Assembly: GCA_029982795.1 (NCBI GenBank)
Contig: JARRBY010000003.1
Location: 1 to 43,268 of the forward strand
Length of the DNA: 43,268 bases
Source of the DNA: Patescibacteria group bacterium
GTDB taxonomy: Bacteria; Patescibacteriota; Patescibacteriia; Patescibacteriales; UBA12465
Reading direction: 5' to 3'
This document shows, in pieces, positions 19,998 to 28,968 of this stretch; position 1 is the first letter of the stretch; the number at the start of each line of letters is the position of its first letter. The position numbers were made by a program, and so were the translations under genes. The notes beneath the pieces are model-generated. The model was not told the DNA's origin and ran no database searches. It worked only from the letters and a program-made list of their open reading frames with translations.

Positions 19998-21011
19998 ATG
20001 CAAAAAATAAATATCGCAATAAACGGCTTTGGCCGTATTGGTCGCAGTGCTTTAAAAATAATTGTTGATTGCTTTCCCAACATAAATATAGTTGCCATTA
20101 ATGATTTAGCTGATGTAGAAATTTTAGCGCATTTGCTTCGCTTTGATTCGGTTTATGGTAATTATAACAAATCAGTCAGTTACAGTGATAACAAGTTAAT
20201 TGTTGATAAAAAGAAAATTCCGGTTTTTGCTAGCAAAGATCCAAGCCAGCTTCCGTGGCAGCAATTAAAAGTTGATGTGGTGCTTGAGTGTACCGGCGTA
20301 TTTCGTGATAAAGAAGCGCTTAGTTTGCACCTTAAAGCTGGCGCTAAGAAGGTGATTCTTTCCGCTCCCGCTAAAGGCAAGGGGGTGAAAATGATAGTTC
20401 TGGGCGTAAATGAGAAAAAAATCTTAAAGGGAGATGACTTAATTTCTTGCGCTTCTTGCACTACTAATTGTTTAGCGCCGGCAACAGAAATAATTAGACA
20501 AAAATTTGGTATTAAAAAAGCTTTAATGACTACAATTCATGCTTATACGGCTAATCAAAATATAGTTGATGGCCCCAGTAAAGATAAACGTCGTGCTCGT
20601 GCCGGGGCTTTGAATATAGTGCCAACAACTACAGGAGCAGCCATTGCTACCACTGAAGTTATTCCTCAATTAAAGAATAATTTTGATGGCATGTCGGTAC
20701 GTGTACCGGTGCCAGTTGGCTCTTTGGTTGATGCTGTTTATATTTTAAAGAAAAAGACAACGGTGGCTGAAGTTAATGAGGTGTTAACAAAGGCCGCCGC
20801 GGGAAAGTTAAAAGGAATTATGGCTGTTACTCATGAGGAAATTGTATCTTCTGATATAATTGGGAATACCAACAGTACCATTATTGACGCTGCTTCAACT
20901 AAGGTTTTAGGAGGTGATATGCTAAAACTTATCTCTTGGTATGATAATGAGTGGGGATACTCTAATCGTTTAGTAGAGCTTGCTCTTTTAACCGCTAAAT
21001 TTATTAAATAA
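19998..21011 (+). CDS. gap: Type I glyceraldehyde-3-phosphate dehydrogenase
   Basis: INGFGRIGR, SCASCTTNCLAP, TIHAYT, SWYDNEWGYS. Confidence 0.98.
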   Translation: MQKINIAINGFGRIGRSALKIIVDCFPNINIVAINDLADVEILAHLLRFDSVYGNYNKSVSYSDNKLIVDKKKIPVFASKDPSQLPWQQLKVDVVLECTGVFRDKEALSLHLKAGAKKVILSAPAKGKGVKMIVLGVNEKKILKGDDLISCASCTTNCLAPATEIIRQKFGIKKALMTTIHAYTANQNIVDGPSKDKRRARAGALNIVPTTTGAAIATTEVIPQLKNNFDGMSVRVPVPVGSLVDAVYILKKKTTVAEVNEVLTKAAAGKLKGIMAVTHEEIVSSDIIGNTNSTIIDAASTKVLGGDMLKLISWYDNEWGYSNRLVELALLTAKFIK

Positions 21012-21027
21012 TTAAAAGATAAAAAAT

Positions 21028-21765
21028 ATGATGTTAAAAAATAAAGTAGCGATAGTAACCGGTGCTGCTTCGGGAATTGGACGAGCAATTGCTGATTTAT
21101 TTGTTAGCGAAGGTGCTAAGGTGATCTACTCTGATATTCATAAGAACCTGACTGGTTTTAAAACAAGTGCAAAAAAGGCAATTTATGTACCTTGTGATGT
21201 TTCCAATCAGGCAGAAGTAAAGGCTTTGGTAGCAAAAGCCAAGGAGATTTATAAGGGTTTGGATATTATGGTTAATAATGCTGGTGTTGGTGGATCAGGG
21301 GGGATTTTAGAAGTTTCGGCTGATGATTTTGACAGAACTCTTAAAATTAATTTATATGGAGTTTTTTATGGTACTCAGATTGCAGCTCAAACTATGAAAG
21401 CTGCTAAAACAAAGGGTAATATTATTAATATTTCATCTATTTTAGGAACGGTTGGGATGGAACAATCCTTAGCTTATTGCACTTCCAAGGGTGGAGTTGA
21501 ACAATTAACAAGAGCGGCTGCCTTAGATTTAGCTACACTGGGTATTCGGGTTAATGCAATTGCTCCCGCTTTTATTAAAACAAAGATGACGGAAGGCATT
21601 TTACATGATAAAAAATTTAATCAGATGATAGTTAATAATACTCCGCTTGGTTATGTGGGCGAGCCGAAAGATATAGCAAATGCGGCCCTTTATTTAGCGA
21701 GCGATAAGGCAAAGTATATTACCGGTAGTACTCTGCGTGTTGATGGAGGTTGGACTATACACTAA
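21028..21765 (+). CDS. Classical SDR-family oxidoreductase
   Basis: TGAASGIG, NNAG, NISS, YCTSK, IRVNAIAP, VDGG; Asp after beta-2 (YSDI) suggests NAD preference. Confidence 0.93.
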   Translation: MMLKNKVAIVTGAASGIGRAIADLFVSEGAKVIYSDIHKNLTGFKTSAKKAIYVPCDVSNQAEVKALVAKAKEIYKGLDIMVNNAGVGGSGGILEVSADDFDRTLKINLYGVFYGTQIAAQTMKAAKTKGNIINISSILGTVGMEQSLAYCTSKGGVEQLTRAAALDLATLGIRVNAIAPAFIKTKMTEGILHDKKFNQMIVNNTPLGYVGEPKDIANAALYLASDKAKYITGSTLRVDGGWTIH

Positions 21766-21766
21766 A

Positions 21767-22807
21767 ATGACAAATTTAGCGTTAATAAAAAAAATAGAAG
21801 AATCAGGGTTAACTGGTCGGGGTGGTGGTTCTTTTTCGGTTGCAAAAAAATGGCAATTAGTGAAAAAAAATTTAAAGGGTAATAATCCGGGATATATTAT
21901 TATAAATGGCGCTGAAGGTGAGCCGGAAGTAAAAAAAGATGGTTATTTATTAGCGCAAGAAACAGAATCAGTTATAGCCGGGGTTTATTATGCTTTTCTC
22001 TATTTAGGGAAAAAAAATGTTAAGGCAATTTATTTCTATTTAAATCCAATATATTTTAAAAAATATAGAGCAAGAATTGAAAAAGTATTAAAGAATAGTT
22101 TGTATAAAGAATTGGCAAAAAAAGTGATTTTTTATAAAAAATCGGAAGAGAGTGGTTATATTGGCGGGGAAGAGAGTGTGGTAATAAATATTATAAGCGG
22201 CAAAAAAGCTCAGCCAAACCAGAGACCGCCATTTCCAGTTGAAATTGGTTTATTTGAAAAACCAACTCTAATTAATAATGTTGAGACTTTTTATAATATC
22301 GCTTTAATTGCTACAGGTGTTTACGATAACAAACGGCTTTATACTTTAGCGGGAGCTTGTCGTCATAAAGGAGTGTATAATTTACCCGCTACTATGAGTA
22401 TCGCTGATGTTCTGCAGGCCACTGATAATTATCCCGATTTTCCTTTTTTTGTTATTGCCGGTGGTGGAGTTTGTGGAGAAGTTTTAGATGAAAATCAACT
22501 TTTAGCCGGGGTGGAAGGTTCGGGTTTGATTATGATTTTTGATCATCGTCAAACTGATTATGATAAGTTGCTTAATTATTGGTTACGATTTTATAAAAAC
22601 CAAAGTTGTGGTTTATGTACTCCTTGTCGTGAAGGTAGTTATCGTTTGCATGAATTAGCTAAGGAAAAAAAGATTAAGGAGGAAAAATTTATTGATCTTT
22701 TAGACAATTTAGAACAAAGTACTTTTTGTGCTCTAGGTTCTTCTTTAACCTATACGGTGAAAAGTTATTTAGAAAATATTTATTTTAAATATAAAAAATA
22801 TGACTGA
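21767..22807 (+). CDS. Compact NuoF/HydB-like FMN/NADH-binding diaphorase subunit (start moved to ATG 21767)
   Basis: SGLTGRGGGSF..KKW, NGAEGEP..KD, YIGGEES, PTLINNVET, [4Fe-4S] ligands SCGLCTPCREG...FCALG. Confidence 0.9.
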   Translation: MTNLALIKKIEESGLTGRGGGSFSVAKKWQLVKKNLKGNNPGYIIINGAEGEPEVKKDGYLLAQETESVIAGVYYAFLYLGKKNVKAIYFYLNPIYFKKYRARIEKVLKNSLYKELAKKVIFYKKSEESGYIGGEESVVINIISGKKAQPNQRPPFPVEIGLFEKPTLINNVETFYNIALIATGVYDNKRLYTLAGACRHKGVYNLPATMSIADVLQATDNYPDFPFFVIAGGGVCGEVLDENQLLAGVEGSGLIMIFDHRQTDYDKLLNYWLRFYKNQSCGLCTPCREGSYRLHELAKEKKIKEEKFIDLLDNLEQSTFCALGSSLTYTVKSYLENIYFKYKKYD

Positions 22808-23564
22808 AGAAAAAAATGAAATTACTGTTCAACCGGTTGATAAAAAAAAGGAATTACCCTCTTTTTTTAGCAGTTTAGAAAGGGCAACTAAATTATGGTG
22901 GAAACATTTAAAAAAAATTGTTTTAATTTATTTAGAAGGGCTTAAATTAGCCTTAATTCCTTTACTTATTTTGCTTTCAATAATAGTTTTGGATTTTAAT
23001 TTATTTAGTGAGCGGTTTTCTTTAGCTTGGCTTGATTTAGTTTTATTTGTGGCCTCTTTTCTATTAACCTTTTACTTTTTTTCACGAGCGGAGATTGCTA
23101 TTTTCCTTTTTATAAAAAATGGTTTTAAAGGTGAAGCCAAAACTTTGTTTAAAAAAACACGTCCTTTATTTTGGCCCTATTTTTGGCTGGGTTTATTAAC
23201 CTTTATTTTAATTTTTTTATGGAGCCTGCTTTTAATTATTCCCGGTTTAATATTTAGCGCTTATTATGTTTTAGCGGTGTATGCTTTTTTCAGTGAAGGA
23301 AAAAAAGGTTGGTCGGCTATTTCGCGAAGCAAATTTTTAGTAAATGGTTATTTTTGGCCCATATTTGGACGTTTCCTTTTTTTCTTCATTTTAGCTTATT
23401 TGTTTGGTAGTATTATTGACATCCCTCAATCAGTTTTAACTGAAGATAGTGTGATGTTTAAAACTTGGGATTTGATTGAACAAGTTATTATTACTTTAGT
23501 GATTCCTATTTTCATTATTTTCTTTTACGACGTTTATGATTTCTTAGCTAAGAGCAAAAAATAA
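22800..23564 (+). CDS. Integral membrane protein (about 5-6 TM; resembles GDPD-membrane-domain-like families)
   Basis: Hydrophobic segments; WSLLLIIPGLIF and AISRSKFLVNGYFW pattern; overlaps the nuoF-like stop by 8 nt. Confidence 0.8.
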   Translation: MTEEKNEITVQPVDKKKELPSFFSSLERATKLWWKHLKKIVLIYLEGLKLALIPLLILLSIIVLDFNLFSERFSLAWLDLVLFVASFLLTFYFFSRAEIAIFLFIKNGFKGEAKTLFKKTRPLFWPYFWLGLLTFILIFLWSLLLIIPGLIFSAYYVLAVYAFFSEGKKGWSAISRSKFLVNGYFWPIFGRFLFFFILAYLFGSIIDIPQSVLTEDSVMFKTWDLIEQVIITLVIPIFIIFFYDVYDFLAKSKK

Positions 23565-23568
23565 GAAC

Positions 23569-25266
23569 ATGCAGGTAATTATTGATAAAAAAAAGATAGA
23601 GGCCAAAAAAAATGAAACTATTTTGGCGGTTGCACAGAGAGTTGGGATAGATATTCCTTATCTTTCATTTAATCCCGAACTTAGAGGTAAAGGGGGTGAT
23701 AGAGTGGCTTTGGTTGAAGTAAAAGGTGAAAGTAAGTTAATGTCGGCGGAAACTACAAAAGTGCGCGAAGGAATGATAATTTTTACCAATTCAAGTAAAG
23801 TACAGCGTTTTCGTCGTTTAAATTTAGAATTAATTTTTGCGTCTCATATTGAAAAATGCGCTGATTGCACTTTGCGTTTTAATTGTCGTCTTTTGGAATT
23901 AGCGCGTCTTCAGCAAATAAAAATTAGTGAGTTTTCTGATCGAAAAGCTTTGCGTAAAACCTATCGCTTTTCTACTGCGGTTGAAATTGATGGAACGCAA
24001 TGCATTGATTGTGGTAACTGTATTGAAGCTTGCGCTTTGCAGGGAATTAATTTTCTCCAATTTACAGGTAAAGGTTATCAGCAAGAGTTAAAGCCAACAA
24101 ATGATAAAAGTAGAGTTTGTATTCATTGTGGGCAATGTACTAATGTTTGTCCGGTAGCGGCCGCTCAAGAACAGCTGGAGTGGCCACAGGTGGAAAAGGT
24201 TTTAGCTGATAAAACTAAGATAGTGGTGGCGCAATTTGCTCCCGCCGCTCGCGTTTCTATTGGTGAAGAGTTTGGAATGAAACAAGGAACTGATTGTACT
24301 AAAAAAATAAATACCGCCCTTAAAGAATTGGGCTTTGCTTATAGTTTTGATATTAATTTTGGGGCCGATATTACAACGATGATTGAGGCTGAAGAATTAT
24401 TGCAACGTTTAAAAAACAAAAAGAATTTACCCCTTTTTACTTCTTGTTGTCCGGCTTGGGTTACTTATGCTGAATCATATTATCCTGAATTACTCCCCCA
24501 TCTTACCACCGCTCGCTCTCCTCATATTCATAGTGCGGGGGCAATTAAGACCTATTTTGCAAAGAAAAAAGGGTTAGATAGACGGCAAATTAAGGTTGTG
24601 TCTATAGTCCCTTGTACAGCTAAAAAGCAGGAAGCTGTAAGAACTGAATTATATTATCAAAAAGAACCGCTAGTTGATTATGTCTTGACTGTTCGTGAAT
24701 TTGCTTTTATGCTAAAAAAGCGACAAATTGACTTGGCTCGATTGAAAGAAAGTGAAACTGAACCTTTATTTAATGATGGTTCGGGGGCGGCGGCTATTTA
24801 TGGTGCTTCCGGCGGTGTAATGGAATCGGCTTTGCGGACGGCTCTTTTTTTAAACAGTACCAAAGAAAAAAAGATTTCTAATGATTTTCGCTTAGATTTT
24901 AAAGAATTGCGACTTAATAAAAATATTAAGGAAGCGGAAATAATGTTGGGAAAACGAAAATTGCGACTGGCCGTTATTAATGGAATTGCCAATTTTCATT
25001 ATATTTTACCCCATTTAAATAAATATCATTATATTGAAGTGATGGCTTGTCCGGGGGGATGTTTAGGTGGAGGAGGACAGCCTCTTCCTAATACTAAAGA
25101 AATCAAAGAAGCTCGAAGAAAAGCATTATACCAAATTGATAAAGATAAAAAAATCAGACGAGCTCATGAAAATAAAGCTATGTTAACTTATTATAATTGG
25201 GTTAAAACGAATAAATTAGAAGCTAAACTATTACATACAAAGTATTTTTCTCGAAAAAGAACTTAA
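23569..25266 (+). CDS. hydA: [FeFe]-hydrogenase catalytic subunit, group A
   Basis: L1 FTSCCPAW, L2 VPCTAKKQE, L3 EVMACPGGCLGGGGQP; HxxxCxxCx5C; two CxxCxxCxxxC motifs; C-terminal LLHTKY. Confidence 0.93.
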   Translation: MQVIIDKKKIEAKKNETILAVAQRVGIDIPYLSFNPELRGKGGDRVALVEVKGESKLMSAETTKVREGMIIFTNSSKVQRFRRLNLELIFASHIEKCADCTLRFNCRLLELARLQQIKISEFSDRKALRKTYRFSTAVEIDGTQCIDCGNCIEACALQGINFLQFTGKGYQQELKPTNDKSRVCIHCGQCTNVCPVAAAQEQLEWPQVEKVLADKTKIVVAQFAPAARVSIGEEFGMKQGTDCTKKINTALKELGFAYSFDINFGADITTMIEAEELLQRLKNKKNLPLFTSCCPAWVTYAESYYPELLPHLTTARSPHIHSAGAIKTYFAKKKGLDRRQIKVVSIVPCTAKKQEAVRTELYYQKEPLVDYVLTVREFAFMLKKRQIDLARLKESETEPLFNDGSGAAAIYGASGGVMESALRTALFLNSTKEKKISNDFRLDFKELRLNKNIKEAEIMLGKRKLRLAVINGIANFHYILPHLNKYHYIEVMACPGGCLGGGGQPLPNTKEIKEARRKALYQIDKDKKIRRAHENKAMLTYYNWVKTNKLEAKLLHTKYFSRKRT

Positions 25267-25271
25267 TTATT

Positions 25272-26711
25272 ATGAAAATTCCGGATTTTGTTATGACGAC
25301 AACAACTAAAATTAAAGCCGCTGGTTTTAAGGCTTTTATAGTAGGTGGTTGTGTTCGAGATTTTTTAATGAATAAAGAGCCTCAGGATTGGGATATAACA
25401 ACTAATGCTAAACCAGAAGAAATTGTTTCTCTTTTTCCCGAAGCTAAATATAATAATTCTTTTGGTACGGTTTTGTTACCTATTCGTGATCGTGAAGAAA
25501 AAATTATTACTGTTTTAGAAATTACAACCTATCGTAGTGAAGCGACCTATACTGATCGTCGCCATCCTGATAAGGTGGAATTTGAAAAGGAATTAGATAA
25601 AGATTTATCACGACGTGATTTTACTATTAATGCGTTAGCAATTGATCCTGCTAATCCTGATTTAATAGTTGACTTATTTGGTGGCCGTAAAGATATTAAG
25701 TTAAAAATAATCAGAGCAATCGGTGAACCGACCGATCGTTTTAAAGAAGATGCTTTAAGAATGTTACGAGCGGTGCGATTTGCGACTCAACTTGATTTTA
25801 CCTTAGAACCAAAAACAGAAAGAGCGATTATTAAATTAGCCGGTAGTCTTAAATTTGTTTCCAATGAAAGAATTAGGGATGAGTTTATAAAAATACTTGC
25901 TTCTGAAAGACCGGCGAAAGGCATAGAACTACTGCATAAAACTAAACTTCTGCAATATATTGTTCCAGAATTAGAGCAGGGAGTTAATGTAAAGCAAGAT
26001 AGACACCATATTTATCCGGTTTTTAAACATAACTTGTTAGCTTTAAAATACTGTCCTAGTAAAGATTGGCAAGTTCGTTTAGCCGCTCTTTTACACGATG
26101 TTGCTAAACCAAAAACAAGAAAAATTATAAAAAATATAGCAACTTTTTATAATCATGAATATTTGGGGGCAAAAATGGTTAATCGAATTATGACGAGGCT
26201 TAAATTTAGTAATGAAGATAGAGATAGAGTGGTTAATTTGGTAAAAAACCACATGTTCTATTATAATGTTGGTGAAGTAACGGCCGCTTCAGTGCGACGT
26301 TTAATTGCTAAAGTCGGTCGAGAAAACTTAGCTGATTTAATTGATTTACGAGTAGCTGATCGTTTGGGTTCCGGAACTCCCAAGGCGATGCCTTATAAAT
26401 TAAGACATTTGCAATATATGATGGAAAAAGTACAACATGATCCGATATCAGCAAAAATGTTAAAGGTAAATGGAAATACTTTAATGACTGCTTTAAAATT
26501 AGCACCGGGACCAAAAATAGGGGCTATTTTAGATGTTTTGTTAAGTGAAGTAATAGAAGACCCGAGTTTAAATGAAGAAGATAAACTTTTAGCAAGAGCA
26601 AAAAAATTAAATGAGCTTCAATTAGAGGAGTTACGCCGGAAAGCAAAGACGGTGATTGCTGAAAAAAGACAAGAAGAAGATAAAAATATTAAAAAACAAT
26701 TTAAAATTTAA
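25272..26711 (+). CDS. cca: CCA tRNA nucleotidyltransferase with HD domain
   Basis: VGGCVRD, DWDITT, RRDFTINA, EDALRMLRAVRF, ERIRDE, LLHDVAKP. Confidence 0.93.
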   Translation: MKIPDFVMTTTTKIKAAGFKAFIVGGCVRDFLMNKEPQDWDITTNAKPEEIVSLFPEAKYNNSFGTVLLPIRDREEKIITVLEITTYRSEATYTDRRHPDKVEFEKELDKDLSRRDFTINALAIDPANPDLIVDLFGGRKDIKLKIIRAIGEPTDRFKEDALRMLRAVRFATQLDFTLEPKTERAIIKLAGSLKFVSNERIRDEFIKILASERPAKGIELLHKTKLLQYIVPELEQGVNVKQDRHHIYPVFKHNLLALKYCPSKDWQVRLAALLHDVAKPKTRKIIKNIATFYNHEYLGAKMVNRIMTRLKFSNEDRDRVVNLVKNHMFYYNVGEVTAASVRRLIAKVGRENLADLIDLRVADRLGSGTPKAMPYKLRHLQYMMEKVQHDPISAKMLKVNGNTLMTALKLAPGPKIGAILDVLLSEVIEDPSLNEEDKLLARAKKLNELQLEELRRKAKTVIAEKRQEEDKNIKKQFKI

Positions 26712-26722
26712 TTATAGATATT

Positions 26723-27385
26723 ATGTTAAAAAAAATAGGATTAATTATATCTTTAGTTTCAATCACGCTACTTTTAAGTGCTTGTACAACCGAGAAGGAA
26801 ACAACAACTGGTGCGGTAAACAATAATTTAATTATTAATCAAAATATAAATAATAATATGAATAATAACAGAACCCTTGATGGTCAAGTGGATTTAGCGT
26901 CAGAATACAAAGCAGCGCTTATAAAAACTAATTTAGGTGACATTAAAGTAGAGTTTTATGCGGAAGAGTCGCCGTTAACTGTTAATAATTTTCTTAATTT
27001 AGCTAAAGATGGTTTTTATGATAATACTAAATTTCATCGTGTTATTAAGGATTTTATGATACAAGGTGGTGATCCTAATAGTCGGGGAGATAATTATATG
27101 ATCTATGGTACCGGTGGTCCGGGCTATACTTTTAAGGATGAAATTAATAATCATAAATTAGTAGCCGGTAGTTTAGCGATGGCTAATTCGGGGGCAAATA
27201 CCAATGGTTCCCAATTTTTTATTGTTACTCTTGATAGCACTCCTTGGCTTGATGGTAAGCATACTAATTTTGGTCAAGTTGTAGCGGGAATGGATGTAGT
27301 TATGAAAATAGAAGGAGTAACAACCGGGGAACGTGATATTCCTTTAGAACCGGTTGTAATAAATACAATAGAACTGTTACAATAA
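26723..27385 (+). CDS. Cyclophilin-type peptidyl-prolyl isomerase, lipoprotein
   Basis: Lipobox LSAC; FHRVIKDFMIQGGD, LAMANSGANTNGSQFFI, WLDGKHTNFGQV. Confidence 0.95.
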   Translation: MLKKIGLIISLVSITLLLSACTTEKETTTGAVNNNLIINQNINNNMNNNRTLDGQVDLASEYKAALIKTNLGDIKVEFYAEESPLTVNNFLNLAKDGFYDNTKFHRVIKDFMIQGGDPNSRGDNYMIYGTGGPGYTFKDEINNHKLVAGSLAMANSGANTNGSQFFIVTLDSTPWLDGKHTNFGQVVAGMDVVMKIEGVTTGERDIPLEPVVINTIELLQ

Positions 27386-27389
27386 AAAG

Positions 27390-27809
27390 ATGCCTAAAAT
27401 AGATAAAAAAATTAGAGCTTTAGCGGTTGTTATTATTAAACATAATAATCGTATTTTAGTATCACCGCTTTATGATAGAGAAAAAGATTGGCATTTCTTT
27501 CGCCTTTTAGGGGGAGGAATTGAGTTTGGAGAAAGAGCACAAGAAGCTTTAGAGCGTGAAATTAAAGAAGAGTTAGATAAAGAAATTGTAAATATTTCAC
27601 TTGTAGAAGTAAGTGAAAATATATTTCAGTATCAGGGGAAAAAGGGACATGAAATTTGTTTTATTTATCAGGCTGATTTTAAAAATAAGGCAGATTACAA
27701 TATAGAAGAATTTTCAATTTTAGATCAAGCTGATCGAAAAGCAATTTGGGTGGAATTAAATGAGGAAAATAGAAAAAAAATTACACCAATAATAAATAAA
27801 AAATATTAA
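27390..27809 (+). CDS. NUDIX hydrolase
   Basis: Nudix box GGGIEFGERAQEALEREIKEEL. Confidence 0.92.
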   Translation: MPKIDKKIRALAVVIIKHNNRILVSPLYDREKDWHFFRLLGGGIEFGERAQEALEREIKEELDKEIVNISLVEVSENIFQYQGKKGHEICFIYQADFKNKADYNIEEFSILDQADRKAIWVELNEENRKKITPIINKKY

Positions 27810-27813
27810 TTAT

Positions 27814-28968
27814 ATGAGAGTATATTTAGATAATGCGGCGACAACGCCTTTAGACCCTCGGGTTTTAAAAAAAATGTTACCTTATTTTACCGAAAAATTT
27901 GGTAATCCTGCTTCTATTCATGCCCTGGGACAAGAAGCTTTTATCGCTTTGGAAGAAGCAAGAGAAAAAGTTGCCAATATTTTAAAAGCCCCAAAAGATT
28001 CTCTGGTTTTTACTTCAGGAGCGACTGAATCAAATAATTTTATTATCAGAGGCCTTGCTTTAGCAAATAAAAATGAAAAAAGAAAACGGATTATTATTTC
28101 CGCAATTGAGCACCCTTGTGTTCGTGAAGCCGCCAGAAGATTAATGGTTGCGGGATATACTATTGATTATGTACCGGCTAATAAGGAGGGAATAGTGACT
28201 GCTAAGGCTTTAGAAAATCTAATAGGGGATGATGTTTTATTGGTTTCTGTTATGATGGTTAATAATGAAATTGGAACTATTCAGGATATCAAAAAATTAG
28301 CTACTATAGCCCATCGCTTTGGTGCTTATTTTCATAGTGACGCTGTTCAAGCCGTACCATATTTAAATATAGATATTAAGGCTTTAAAAGTAGATTTTTT
28401 AAGTTTATCAGCTCATAAGTTTTACGGACCAAAAGGAGTGGGCTTAGCTTATATTAATCCTGATATTAAAATGCAAGCTTTAATTGTTGGTGGTGGACAA
28501 GAAAATAATTTACGTTCCGGTACTCATAATTTACCCGGTATAATTGGTTTAAGTGAAGCGCTGTATTTAGCTTACCGGGAAAGAGATGAATATCTTAAAA
28601 GAATAAGTAAATTACAGAAATATTTTTGGGAAAAATTAAAACAAGAAATTCCTGAAGTTTTAATTAATGGTAGCTGGGAAAAAAGAGTTCCTGCTAATTT
28701 AAATGTGCGTTTTCGTTATATTGAAGGAGAAGCAATTTTAATGGATTTATCTCAAAAGGGAATTTGTGTTTCTACTGGTTCAGCTTGTTCTGCTTCAGAT
28801 TTAAGAGCTTCTTATGTTCTTAAAGAAATAGGATTAGATAAAAATTATTTAAATAGTAATATCCGTTTTTCATTTGGTCGTTTTACCACTAAAGCAGAGC
28901 TTGATTATACAATTAAGGCTTTAAAGCAAACGGTAAAAAGACTACGAGCTTTCTCTCCAATAAATTAA
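27814..28968 (+). CDS. iscS: Cysteine desulfurase, IscS/NifS type
   Basis: YLDNAATTP, FTSGATESNN, HSDAVQA, SAHKFYGPKG, STGSACS. Confidence 0.95.
   Translation: MRVYLDNAATTPLDPRVLKKMLPYFTEKFGNPASIHALGQEAFIALEEAREKVANILKAPKDSLVFTSGATESNNFIIRGLALANKNEKRKRIIISAIEHPCVREAARRLMVAGYTIDYVPANKEGIVTAKALENLIGDDVLLVSVMMVNNEIGTIQDIKKLATIAHRFGAYFHSDAVQAVPYLNIDIKALKVDFLSLSAHKFYGPKGVGLAYINPDIKMQALIVGGGQENNLRSGTHNLPGIIGLSEALYLAYRERDEYLKRISKLQKYFWEKLKQEIPEVLINGSWEKRVPANLNVRFRYIEGEAILMDLSQKGICVSTGSACSASDLRASYVLKEIGLDKNYLNSNIRFSFGRFTTKAELDYTIKALKQTVKRLRAFSPIN

Follow-up and report, generated by a model that had tools for sequence, protein, structure and literature searches.

We analyzed a stretch of 43,268 nucleotides from a Patescibacteria group bacterium (contig JARRBY010000003.1; hereafter the window), belonging to a host group that we take to be ultra-small groundwater bacteria. 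Its hydA gene (positions 23569–25266) encodes a 565-residue [FeFe] hydrogenase of group A with the M3 fold. The amino-terminal domain of this HydA, which in its relatives binds a [2Fe-2S] cluster (FS2), has lost all four of its Cys ligands. The loss goes back to a single event in the common ancestor of a small sublineage inside one GTDB genus-level group of Patescibacteria, and the Cys-free domain is under purifying selection. On balance, we regard it as probable that HydA is a working-type M3 hydrogenase that has kept the cluster-free domain as a docking module for a NuoF-like flavoprotein, with electrons passing directly from the N3 cluster of that protein to the FS4B cluster of HydA. All features of the window described below lie on the plus strand.

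We assigned the ligand positions by aligning HydA residue by residue with T. kivui HydA1 (8a6t_A) and CpI. The first Cys is replaced by S33 (TCA, 23665–23667), the second by D44 within a GGDR motif (GAT, 23698–23700), the third by A47 (GCT, 23707–23709) and the fourth by E61 (GAA, 23749–23751), and HydA contains no Cys at all upstream of its His-ligated motif (residues 1–92). These structure-relative alignments and the codons themselves confirm the claim of an earlier note on this DNA that all four ligands have been exchanged, for Ser, Asp, Ala and Glu. We know of no Fe-S cluster that is held without any Cys ligand, and rejected on that ground a reading in which the domain binds a non-canonical cluster. 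Contigs from four runs of one study, one of them possibly the source, match positions 23500–23900 except at 23616 and 23818, where the differences are synonymous and lie outside the ligand codons.

The domain itself (residues 1–78; 23569–23802) is still recognized by Pfam as Fer2_4 over residues 3–75 (E 4.4e-11). It is followed by a 4Fe-4S dicluster domain (residues 138–198), the H-domain (Fe_hyd_lg_C, residues 217–502; 24217–25074; E 5.4e-83) and a carboxy-terminal small-subunit-like segment (Fe_hyd_SSU, residues 511–562; 25099–25254). An AlphaFold2 model of HydA, calculated from a 116-row alignment, reached a mean predicted local distance difference test (pLDDT) of 88.3 and a predicted template modelling score of 0.90. 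Within it, the amino-terminal domain showed the strands and single helix of the β-grasp pattern with pLDDT values of 80–96 per 10-residue block. Foldseek matched the model over its full length to 8a6t_A and CpI with template modelling (TM) scores of 0.84–0.86. Together, the Fer2_4 match and the pLDDT values support retention of the fold, as the earlier note had supposed.

Outside this domain the cofactor motifs are intact. The His-ligated [4Fe-4S] motif of the FS4C type (HIEKCADCTLRFNC; H93, C97, C100 and C106; 23845–23886) occupies columns that are invariant in our alignment of relatives (A1), and the same holds for all eight ligands of the two ferredoxin-type CxxCxxCxxxC motifs of the FS4B/FS4A type (C145, C148, C151, C155 and C184, C187, C190, C194; 24001–24150). 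Thus, of the M3-type (CpI-like) F-domain features, FS4C and both ferredoxin-type ligand sets are present and the FS2 Cys are absent. The H-cluster motifs are defined as TSCCP for L1, xPCxxKxxE for L2 and ExMxCxxGCxxGGGQP for L3, and comprise four Cys plus the proton-transfer Cys. HydA carries TSCCP (24439–24453, within FTSCCPAW), VPCTAKKQE (24607–24633, within IVPCTAKKQE) and EVMACPGGCLGGGGQP (25036–25083), besides RSP and the EAEE..R stretch. The intactness of the His-ligated, ferredoxin-type, L1, L3 and proton-path motifs reported by the earlier note was borne out in the HydA sequence, and extends, together with L2 and the H-domain invariants, to all seven members of the Cys-free clade described below. 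The Val that the note had found in L2 in place of the usual Met is present as well, but it is not peculiar to this gene: VPC occurs in at least 78 of 113 other aligned relatives and is the majority state of this Patescibacteria lineage.

With 424 bits, HydA scores above the cut-off of TIGR02512 for group A [FeFe] hydrogenases (405.95). The best-scoring NCBIfam model and highest-scoring named family, NF040763 (NADH-dependent group A6), covers residues 2–562 with 584.2 bits but falls below its curated cut-off of 765, and this model accordingly does not count HydA as a member. Among solved structures, T. kivui HydA1 is the best relative (E 1.3e-122), and CpI comes next.

To delineate the distribution of the loss, we compared the best 120 of 7888 protein matches. 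All four Cys are present in 112 of these relatives, one is amino-terminally truncated, and seven (P0001–P0007; 66–100% identical to the query) lack all four. At the ligand positions the seven read Ser-Asp-Ala-Glu (two proteins), Ser-Asp-Ser-Glu (one), Ser-Asp-Ser-Asp (three) and Ala-Asp-Ser-Asp (one). Position 33, which is Cys in the 112 other full-length relatives, is therefore Ser in six and Ala in one, position 44 is Asp in all seven, position 47 is Ser in five and Ala in two, and position 61 is Asp in four and Glu in three. The window protein is represented in these alignments by P0001, from which it differs at two residues, both outside the amino-terminal domain. In a tree calculated for the 60 nearest proteins from residue 86 to the end, and so leaving out the domain that bears the trait, the seven stood on one branch with a Shimodaira–Hasegawa-like approximate likelihood ratio test (SH-aLRT) support of 100, nested among Cys-bearing Patescibacteria enzymes. 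A single state change suffices on this tree, a count that none of 500 shuffles equalled. The alignment of close homologues that the earlier note had proposed thus yielded a loss common to seven of 120 proteins, forming a single clade of single origin, and this shared absence rules out chance or error.

In the window's genus-level group, 14 of the 15 genomes sampled carry HydA. Of the 12 best loci of the order, two are Cys-free, those of the window's own genome and of G439; all four Cys are kept in the remaining ten, nine of which belong to the same genus. Further Cys-free loci came from a species-level genome collection (L008 and L011) and from a metagenome collection (L086, L090 and the partial L097). 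In addition, the 521-residue protein P0125 (Ala-Asp-Ala-Glu), taken from a representative library at 50% identity, falls within the Cys-free branch, with an unsure placement on a terminal branch of 1.83.

We assessed selection by Nei–Gojobori estimates of the nonsynonymous (dN) and synonymous (dS) substitution rates. All dN/dS values given here are rough because dS is near or above 1. For the window and L008, the closest Cys-free pair with DNA, dN was 0.117, dS 1.06 and dN/dS 0.110 over residues 1–78, whereas residues 79–565 showed 0.097, 1.07 and 0.091, respectively. The deeper Cys-free pairs for which it could be computed (dS was saturated in one pair) gave dN/dS values of 0.18–0.36 for the amino-terminal domain against 0.13–0.14 for the rest. 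The ratio of dN in this domain to dN in the rest was 1.2–2.0 in Cys-free genes and 1.1–3.1 in six Cys-bearing genes, which shows that the domain is as constrained relative to the rest as in cluster-holding homologues. The question raised in the earlier note, whether the altered domain is under purifying selection, was thus answered in the affirmative, and this selection is not relaxed relative to the Cys-bearing relatives.

Between Cys-free and Cys-bearing proteins, the mean pairwise identity is 0.472 for the amino-terminal domain and 0.671 for the rest, compared with 0.667 and 0.738 between two Cys-bearing clades. Judged from these sequence comparisons, the domain changed in a burst along the stem of the clade and was constrained thereafter. 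The loss itself and this fast change on the stem are all that would speak for a gene in decay, for relaxed selection or for an error of assembly. This explanation is scarcely credible here, as the reading frame is open, the other motifs are intact, seven protein clusters of 66–100% identity share the state, and dN/dS is about 0.1. The same sequence also recurs in the contigs of the four runs, and we rejected assembly error and decay as the source of the trait.

The predicted partner of HydA is encoded upstream at 21767–22807 and is a minimal NuoF-like flavoprotein of 346 residues. Its longest open reading frame starts with GTG at 21737 and overlaps the end (21765) of a gene for a short-chain dehydrogenase/reductase (SDR), while homologues begin near ATG 21767, which we consider the most likely start from this comparison. 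The protein aligns to residues 52–418 of Nqo1 and 177–543 of the 626 residues of TmHydB, and scores 172.8 bits against TIGR01959 (NuoF), below the cut-off of 558.65. The N3 ligands C281, C284, C287 and C321 are present in 50, 50, 49 and 50 of 50 sequences, respectively, and the Gly-rich FMN (flavin mononucleotide) loop and the GEP and GEE motifs of the FMN/NADH site are retained, with dN/dS values of 0.07–0.22 for the gene. In its 346–356 residues, only the Pfam domains Complex1_51K and NADH_4Fe-4S were seen, and none of the additional amino- or carboxy-terminal Fe-S domains of the HydB type. As no HydC/NuoE-type subunit (PF01257) was found in the window's own genome, the two proteins would constitute a minimal two-protein module and not a bifurcating complex of the HydABC type. 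Where the earlier note had pointed to HydAB and NuoFG complexes, the predicted partner here is a minimal NuoF-like protein that comes without NuoE and is not a HydB as found in HydABC.

The association of the two genes is widespread. In a survey of 160 loci, not all of them independent, 111 encoded a HydA sharing 50% or more of its residues with ours, and 85 of these 111 extended 1.3 kb or more upstream of it. A NuoF-like gene on the same strand ends at most 1.2 kb upstream of HydA in 80 of the 85, and it adjoins HydA in all four Cys-free loci with DNA. Between the two genes the window encodes a 254-residue hydrophobic, membrane-like protein (22800–23564) that matches no Pfam or NCBIfam model; a homologue occupies this place in 56 of the 85 loci and is absent at the Cys-free locus L011. 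Further upstream lies a gene that we named glyceraldehyde-3-phosphate dehydrogenase (GAPDH; 19998–21011) from reading its translation and from an identity of 57–89% among loci. This putative GAPDH gene recurs in 72 of the 76 loci holding enough DNA. Throughout the order, in which 139 of 201 sampled genomes contain HydA, the gene order (19998–28968 in the window; loci L005–L165) reads GAPDH, sometimes the SDR, NuoF-like protein, sometimes the membrane protein, HydA, CCA-adding enzyme, peptidyl-prolyl isomerase and a NifS-like protein.

We then modelled residues 1–215 of HydA together with the NuoF-like protein, each supplied as an alignment, in three runs and three controls. The interface score ipSAE was 0.86, 0.86 and 0.85 for the pair and 0.00 for the best control. 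The pair thereby passed the mark applied to this score, which 116 of 157 solved complexes but also 2 of 215 mismatched pairs attain; these counts are only approximate for our own alignments. The runs had at least 96% of contacts in common, and the partner showed a pLDDT of at least 89. In the predicted docking geometry, the HydA side of the interface comprises residues 41–46, 48, 56–57, 59, 62–64, part of 77–91, 121–123, 125, 147, 165, 168–170 and 172, and the NuoF-like side comprises residues 277–293, the N3 loop with C281, C284 and C287, as well as 307–320 and a few others. The loops that once held the cluster (residues 41–48 and 56–64) would, along with D147, F165 and Y170, contact residues 277–293 of the partner, and within this N3 loop D44 and R45 would meet residues 285 and 286.

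Fifteen positions separate the Cys-free clade from the other proteins (33, 40, 42, 43, 44, 47, 48, 121, 135, 157, 165, 170, 342, 375 and 560), with clade-specific states that include R121E, F165 and Y170. Within residues 1–215, seven of the 12 such positions are found among the 31 residues of the modelled interface (hypergeometric p 3.2e-4), and three of five when the loop 33–48 is left out (p 0.02). Inside the Cys-free clade, conservation is higher at the interface than elsewhere for both HydA (0.730 vs 0.681) and the NuoF-like protein (0.737 vs 0.644). Shared by a clade, kept under purifying selection and centred on a loop at the modelled interface, the change supports the suggestion of the earlier note that one cluster was lost in a targeted manner, with docking or rewired electron transfer as its outcome, and not by random decay.

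The clade-specific residues also permit a different view, in which the carboxylates at 44 and 61 together with Ser at 33 and 47 would bind a metal outside any Fe-S cluster, or F165 and Y170 would form a hopping relay; in either case the junction would retain an intermediate step for electrons. The conserved D44 and the invariably acidic position 61, the prevalence of Ser at 33 and 47, and the position of the two clade-specific aromatic residues at the modelled interface would fit such a different cofactor. We nevertheless hold it to be very improbable, since Ala stands at position 47 of the window protein and at position 33 of P0005, which leaves the quartet unconserved, and the two carboxylates are equally explicable as replacements of charge or packing.

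Taken as a docking module, the plant-ferredoxin-like amino-terminal domain would no longer bind a [2Fe-2S] cluster and would serve as a structural piece onto which the co-encoded NuoF-like flavoprotein docks. The single loss would have been accompanied by remodelling of the junction, involving the GGDR loop, R121E, F165 and Y170. Electrons from NADH would enter through FMN and reach the [4Fe-4S] cluster of the N3 type in the NuoF-like protein, from where they would pass directly to the first ferredoxin-type [4Fe-4S] cluster of HydA (FS4B, N4 type), skipping the lost relay, and continue through FS4A to the H-cluster. The adjacency to GAPDH suggests that glycolytic NADH may be re-oxidised in this way as H2. 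Both the direct N3-to-FS4B transfer and the NADH-linked H2 production are what we infer.

Direct transfer of this kind has a precedent in E. coli complex I (PMC10175503). N3 and N4 lie 14.9 Å apart edge to edge, and internal transfer was calculated to be about 10-fold slower without N1b. When N1b was removed, either by treatment with H2O2 or by deleting bolA, the activity stayed unchanged, with electrons moving directly from N3 to N4 (PMC10175503). The missing cofactor there is the homologous [2Fe-2S] cluster of the homologous NuoG domain. In contrast to HydA, it was lost in the laboratory with its Cys retained, whereas we observe an evolved replacement of the ligands and the H-cluster as acceptor. 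Likewise, according to PMC12645427, a truncation of CaHydA1 that removes FS2 remained electrocatalytically active with more bias towards H2 evolution (j_red/j_ox of about 3 vs 1.3), and engineered FS2 variants lost ferredoxin-driven activity. These CaHydA1 forms, made by site-directed inactivation or by the S75 truncation, have lost FS2 and kept the rest, as HydA has, although here natural selection has preserved the scaffold, which faces a flavoprotein. The docking reading with direct transfer draws on both cases, since the loss of N1b and the truncation of FS2 leave activity. The question posed by the earlier note, how NADH electrons would reach the H-cluster, has thus found a documented precedent, and for this HydA the corresponding transfer is our proposal.

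Several observations weigh against this docking reading. The dN/dS values on which the constraint of the domain was judged are rough, as stated above, and, relative to the rest, the domain is somewhat less conserved inside the Cys-free clade (mean pairwise identities of 0.595 and 0.733) than inside a comparably deep Cys-bearing clade (0.647 and 0.731). P0125 has SSACP in place of TSCCP, and thereby lost the proton-transfer Cys, shows an altered L2 and lacks the small-subunit-like carboxy terminus. On the NuoF-like side, clade-specific positions were not significantly enriched at the interface (two of seven, K307 and Q317, p 0.16), nor were they with only the nine Cys-linked sequences (four of 21, p 0.16). 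The favourable scores of the complex may reflect likeness to known assemblies and not binding by this very copy, as structures of HydABC and complex I are solved and the model may have remembered them. Finally, ferredoxin could be the real electron donor, as the own genome encodes candidates for it, and H2 catalysis itself is unproven, given the maturases that were not found.

The ferredoxin candidates consist of a 2-oxoacid:ferredoxin oxidoreductase alpha subunit (POR_N, E 4.9e-70) with an adjacent 94-residue protein for two [4Fe-4S] clusters at about 30.9–31.9 kb of contig C25, and a 57-residue single-cluster ferredoxin on the minus strand of contig C24, whose reading frame begins at offset 600 of the reverse complement. 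A ferredoxin-fed enzyme would take up electrons through the His-ligated cluster, the link to the NuoF-like protein would be no electron path, and the amino-terminal domain would be a mere scaffold. The His-ligated motif is intact in all seven clade members, and FS4C was proposed as the ferredoxin entry point of CpI in PMC9499530 and PMC12645427. This route appears rather unlikely to us as the explanation, as a NuoF-like gene adjoins HydA in all four Cys-free loci with its N3 Cys and nucleotide motifs kept under purifying selection, and within the clade the residues at its modelled interface are better conserved than its other residues. The ferredoxin and NuoF-like routes are moreover not mutually exclusive.

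As for maturation, neither HydE nor HydG was found in the own genome, which is 98.8% complete, and for HydF it yielded only generic GTPases below the cut-off; five related genomes (G001–G005), including one complete chromosome, likewise yielded neither HydE nor HydG. Among 401 sampled Patescibacteria genomes, Fe_hyd_lg_C occurred in 46 and HydG above the cut-off in eight, and both occurred together only in G034. The seven other genomes with HydG above the cut-off (G071, G158, G168, G255, G297, G317 and G387) had no Fe_hyd_lg_C match, and several of them showed a second radical-SAM match nearby on the same contig.

Without HydEFG, HydA might hold only [4Fe-4S] clusters in vivo and serve another redox or Fe-S role, so that the loss of the [2Fe-2S] cluster would have been a step of drift. 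The scarcity of maturases speaks for such a protein, as does P0125, the member of the branch without the proton-transfer Cys and the carboxy-terminal segment. It is unlikely in our judgement that HydA is no hydrogenase, as L1, L2, L3, the proton-path residues and the H-domain invariants are kept in all seven clade members, with a dN/dS of 0.09–0.14 for residues 79–565. Furthermore, active [FeFe] hydrogenases of maturase-free organisms are reported for archaea and some eukaryotes (PMC11216029). The lack of maturases is common to the Cys-bearing relatives and has these precedents elsewhere, so it does not explain the change in the clade.

We also compared HydA with known systems. With CpI and CaHydA1, monomeric M3-type enzymes of group A (PDB 4xdc and 1feh), it has in common the five-part fold (TM 0.84–0.86) and the cluster and proton-path motifs, but it lacks the FS2 ligands, carries Val in L2, has an adjacent NuoF-like gene and comes without HydEFG. 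The HydA subunits of HydABC (T. kivui 8a6t_A, A. woodii 7q4w_A and T. maritima 7p5h_A) are the best match in sequence and fold (E 1.3e-122, TM 0.86), and their NuoF-type partner sits on the same face of HydA as in our model. Here, in contrast, HydC/NuoE is missing, the partner is a 346-residue NuoF core without the Fe-S domains of HydB, and the relay [2Fe-2S] cluster is gone. In HydABC, an Fe-S chain through HydA links the H-cluster to FMN, and the His-ligated cluster is oriented towards the adjacent protomer (PMC9499530). M2-type [FeFe] hydrogenases such as D. desulfuricans HydAB work without FS2, but they have neither the FS2 nor the FS4C domain, as described in PMC12645427, whereas both domains are present here.

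Cys patterns elsewhere in the family suggest that our clade is not the only case. Among 150 representatives at 50% identity, 114 had a match to the amino-terminal domain and gave, with the query as reference row, 115 rows, of which 106 had all four Cys, four had part of them and five lacked three or four. The five were the query, P0125, the M3-type proteins P0187 and P0159 (both Tyr-Ser-Cys-Ser) and P0208 (Gly-Val-Ala-Thr). To judge by the three last-named proteins, which keep a Fer2_4 fold, [FeFe] hydrogenases seem to have evolved cluster-free domains of this type on more than one occasion. In P0208 the hydrogenase is fused to a GltD-like NAD(P)H module.

In the literature searched, which was of limited coverage, we found no earlier description of a Cys-free FS2 domain or of maturase-free hydrogenases from Patescibacteria (the candidate phyla radiation, CPR). 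In this clade a relay cluster has been removed naturally and under selection while its scaffold stayed in place, and the laboratory precedents explain how this is workable. Which cluster admits electrons to the M3-type [FeFe] hydrogenases is a matter of continuing debate (PMC12645427), and the need for the N1b-type cluster in NuoG-like modules is likewise under debate. A bolder proposal, in which the former cluster pocket was rebuilt as a different relay, with a metal at D44 and D/E61 or aromatic hopping through F165 and Y170, is quite improbable in our estimation. If it were true, the cluster of highest potential would have been removed and a two-subunit, maturase-independent NADH hydrogenase biased to H2 release would result.

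The Cys-free clade represents a natural deletion experiment, in which the cluster is gone while the domain and its partner are kept and selection continues. It thereby offers a ready-made protein pair for testing direct transfer of the N3-to-N4 type and catalytic bias. Furthermore, it draws attention to a minimal NuoF–HydA module beside GAPDH that is widespread, with HydA in those 139 of 201 genomes of the order, in organisms that mostly lack the H-cluster maturases known so far.

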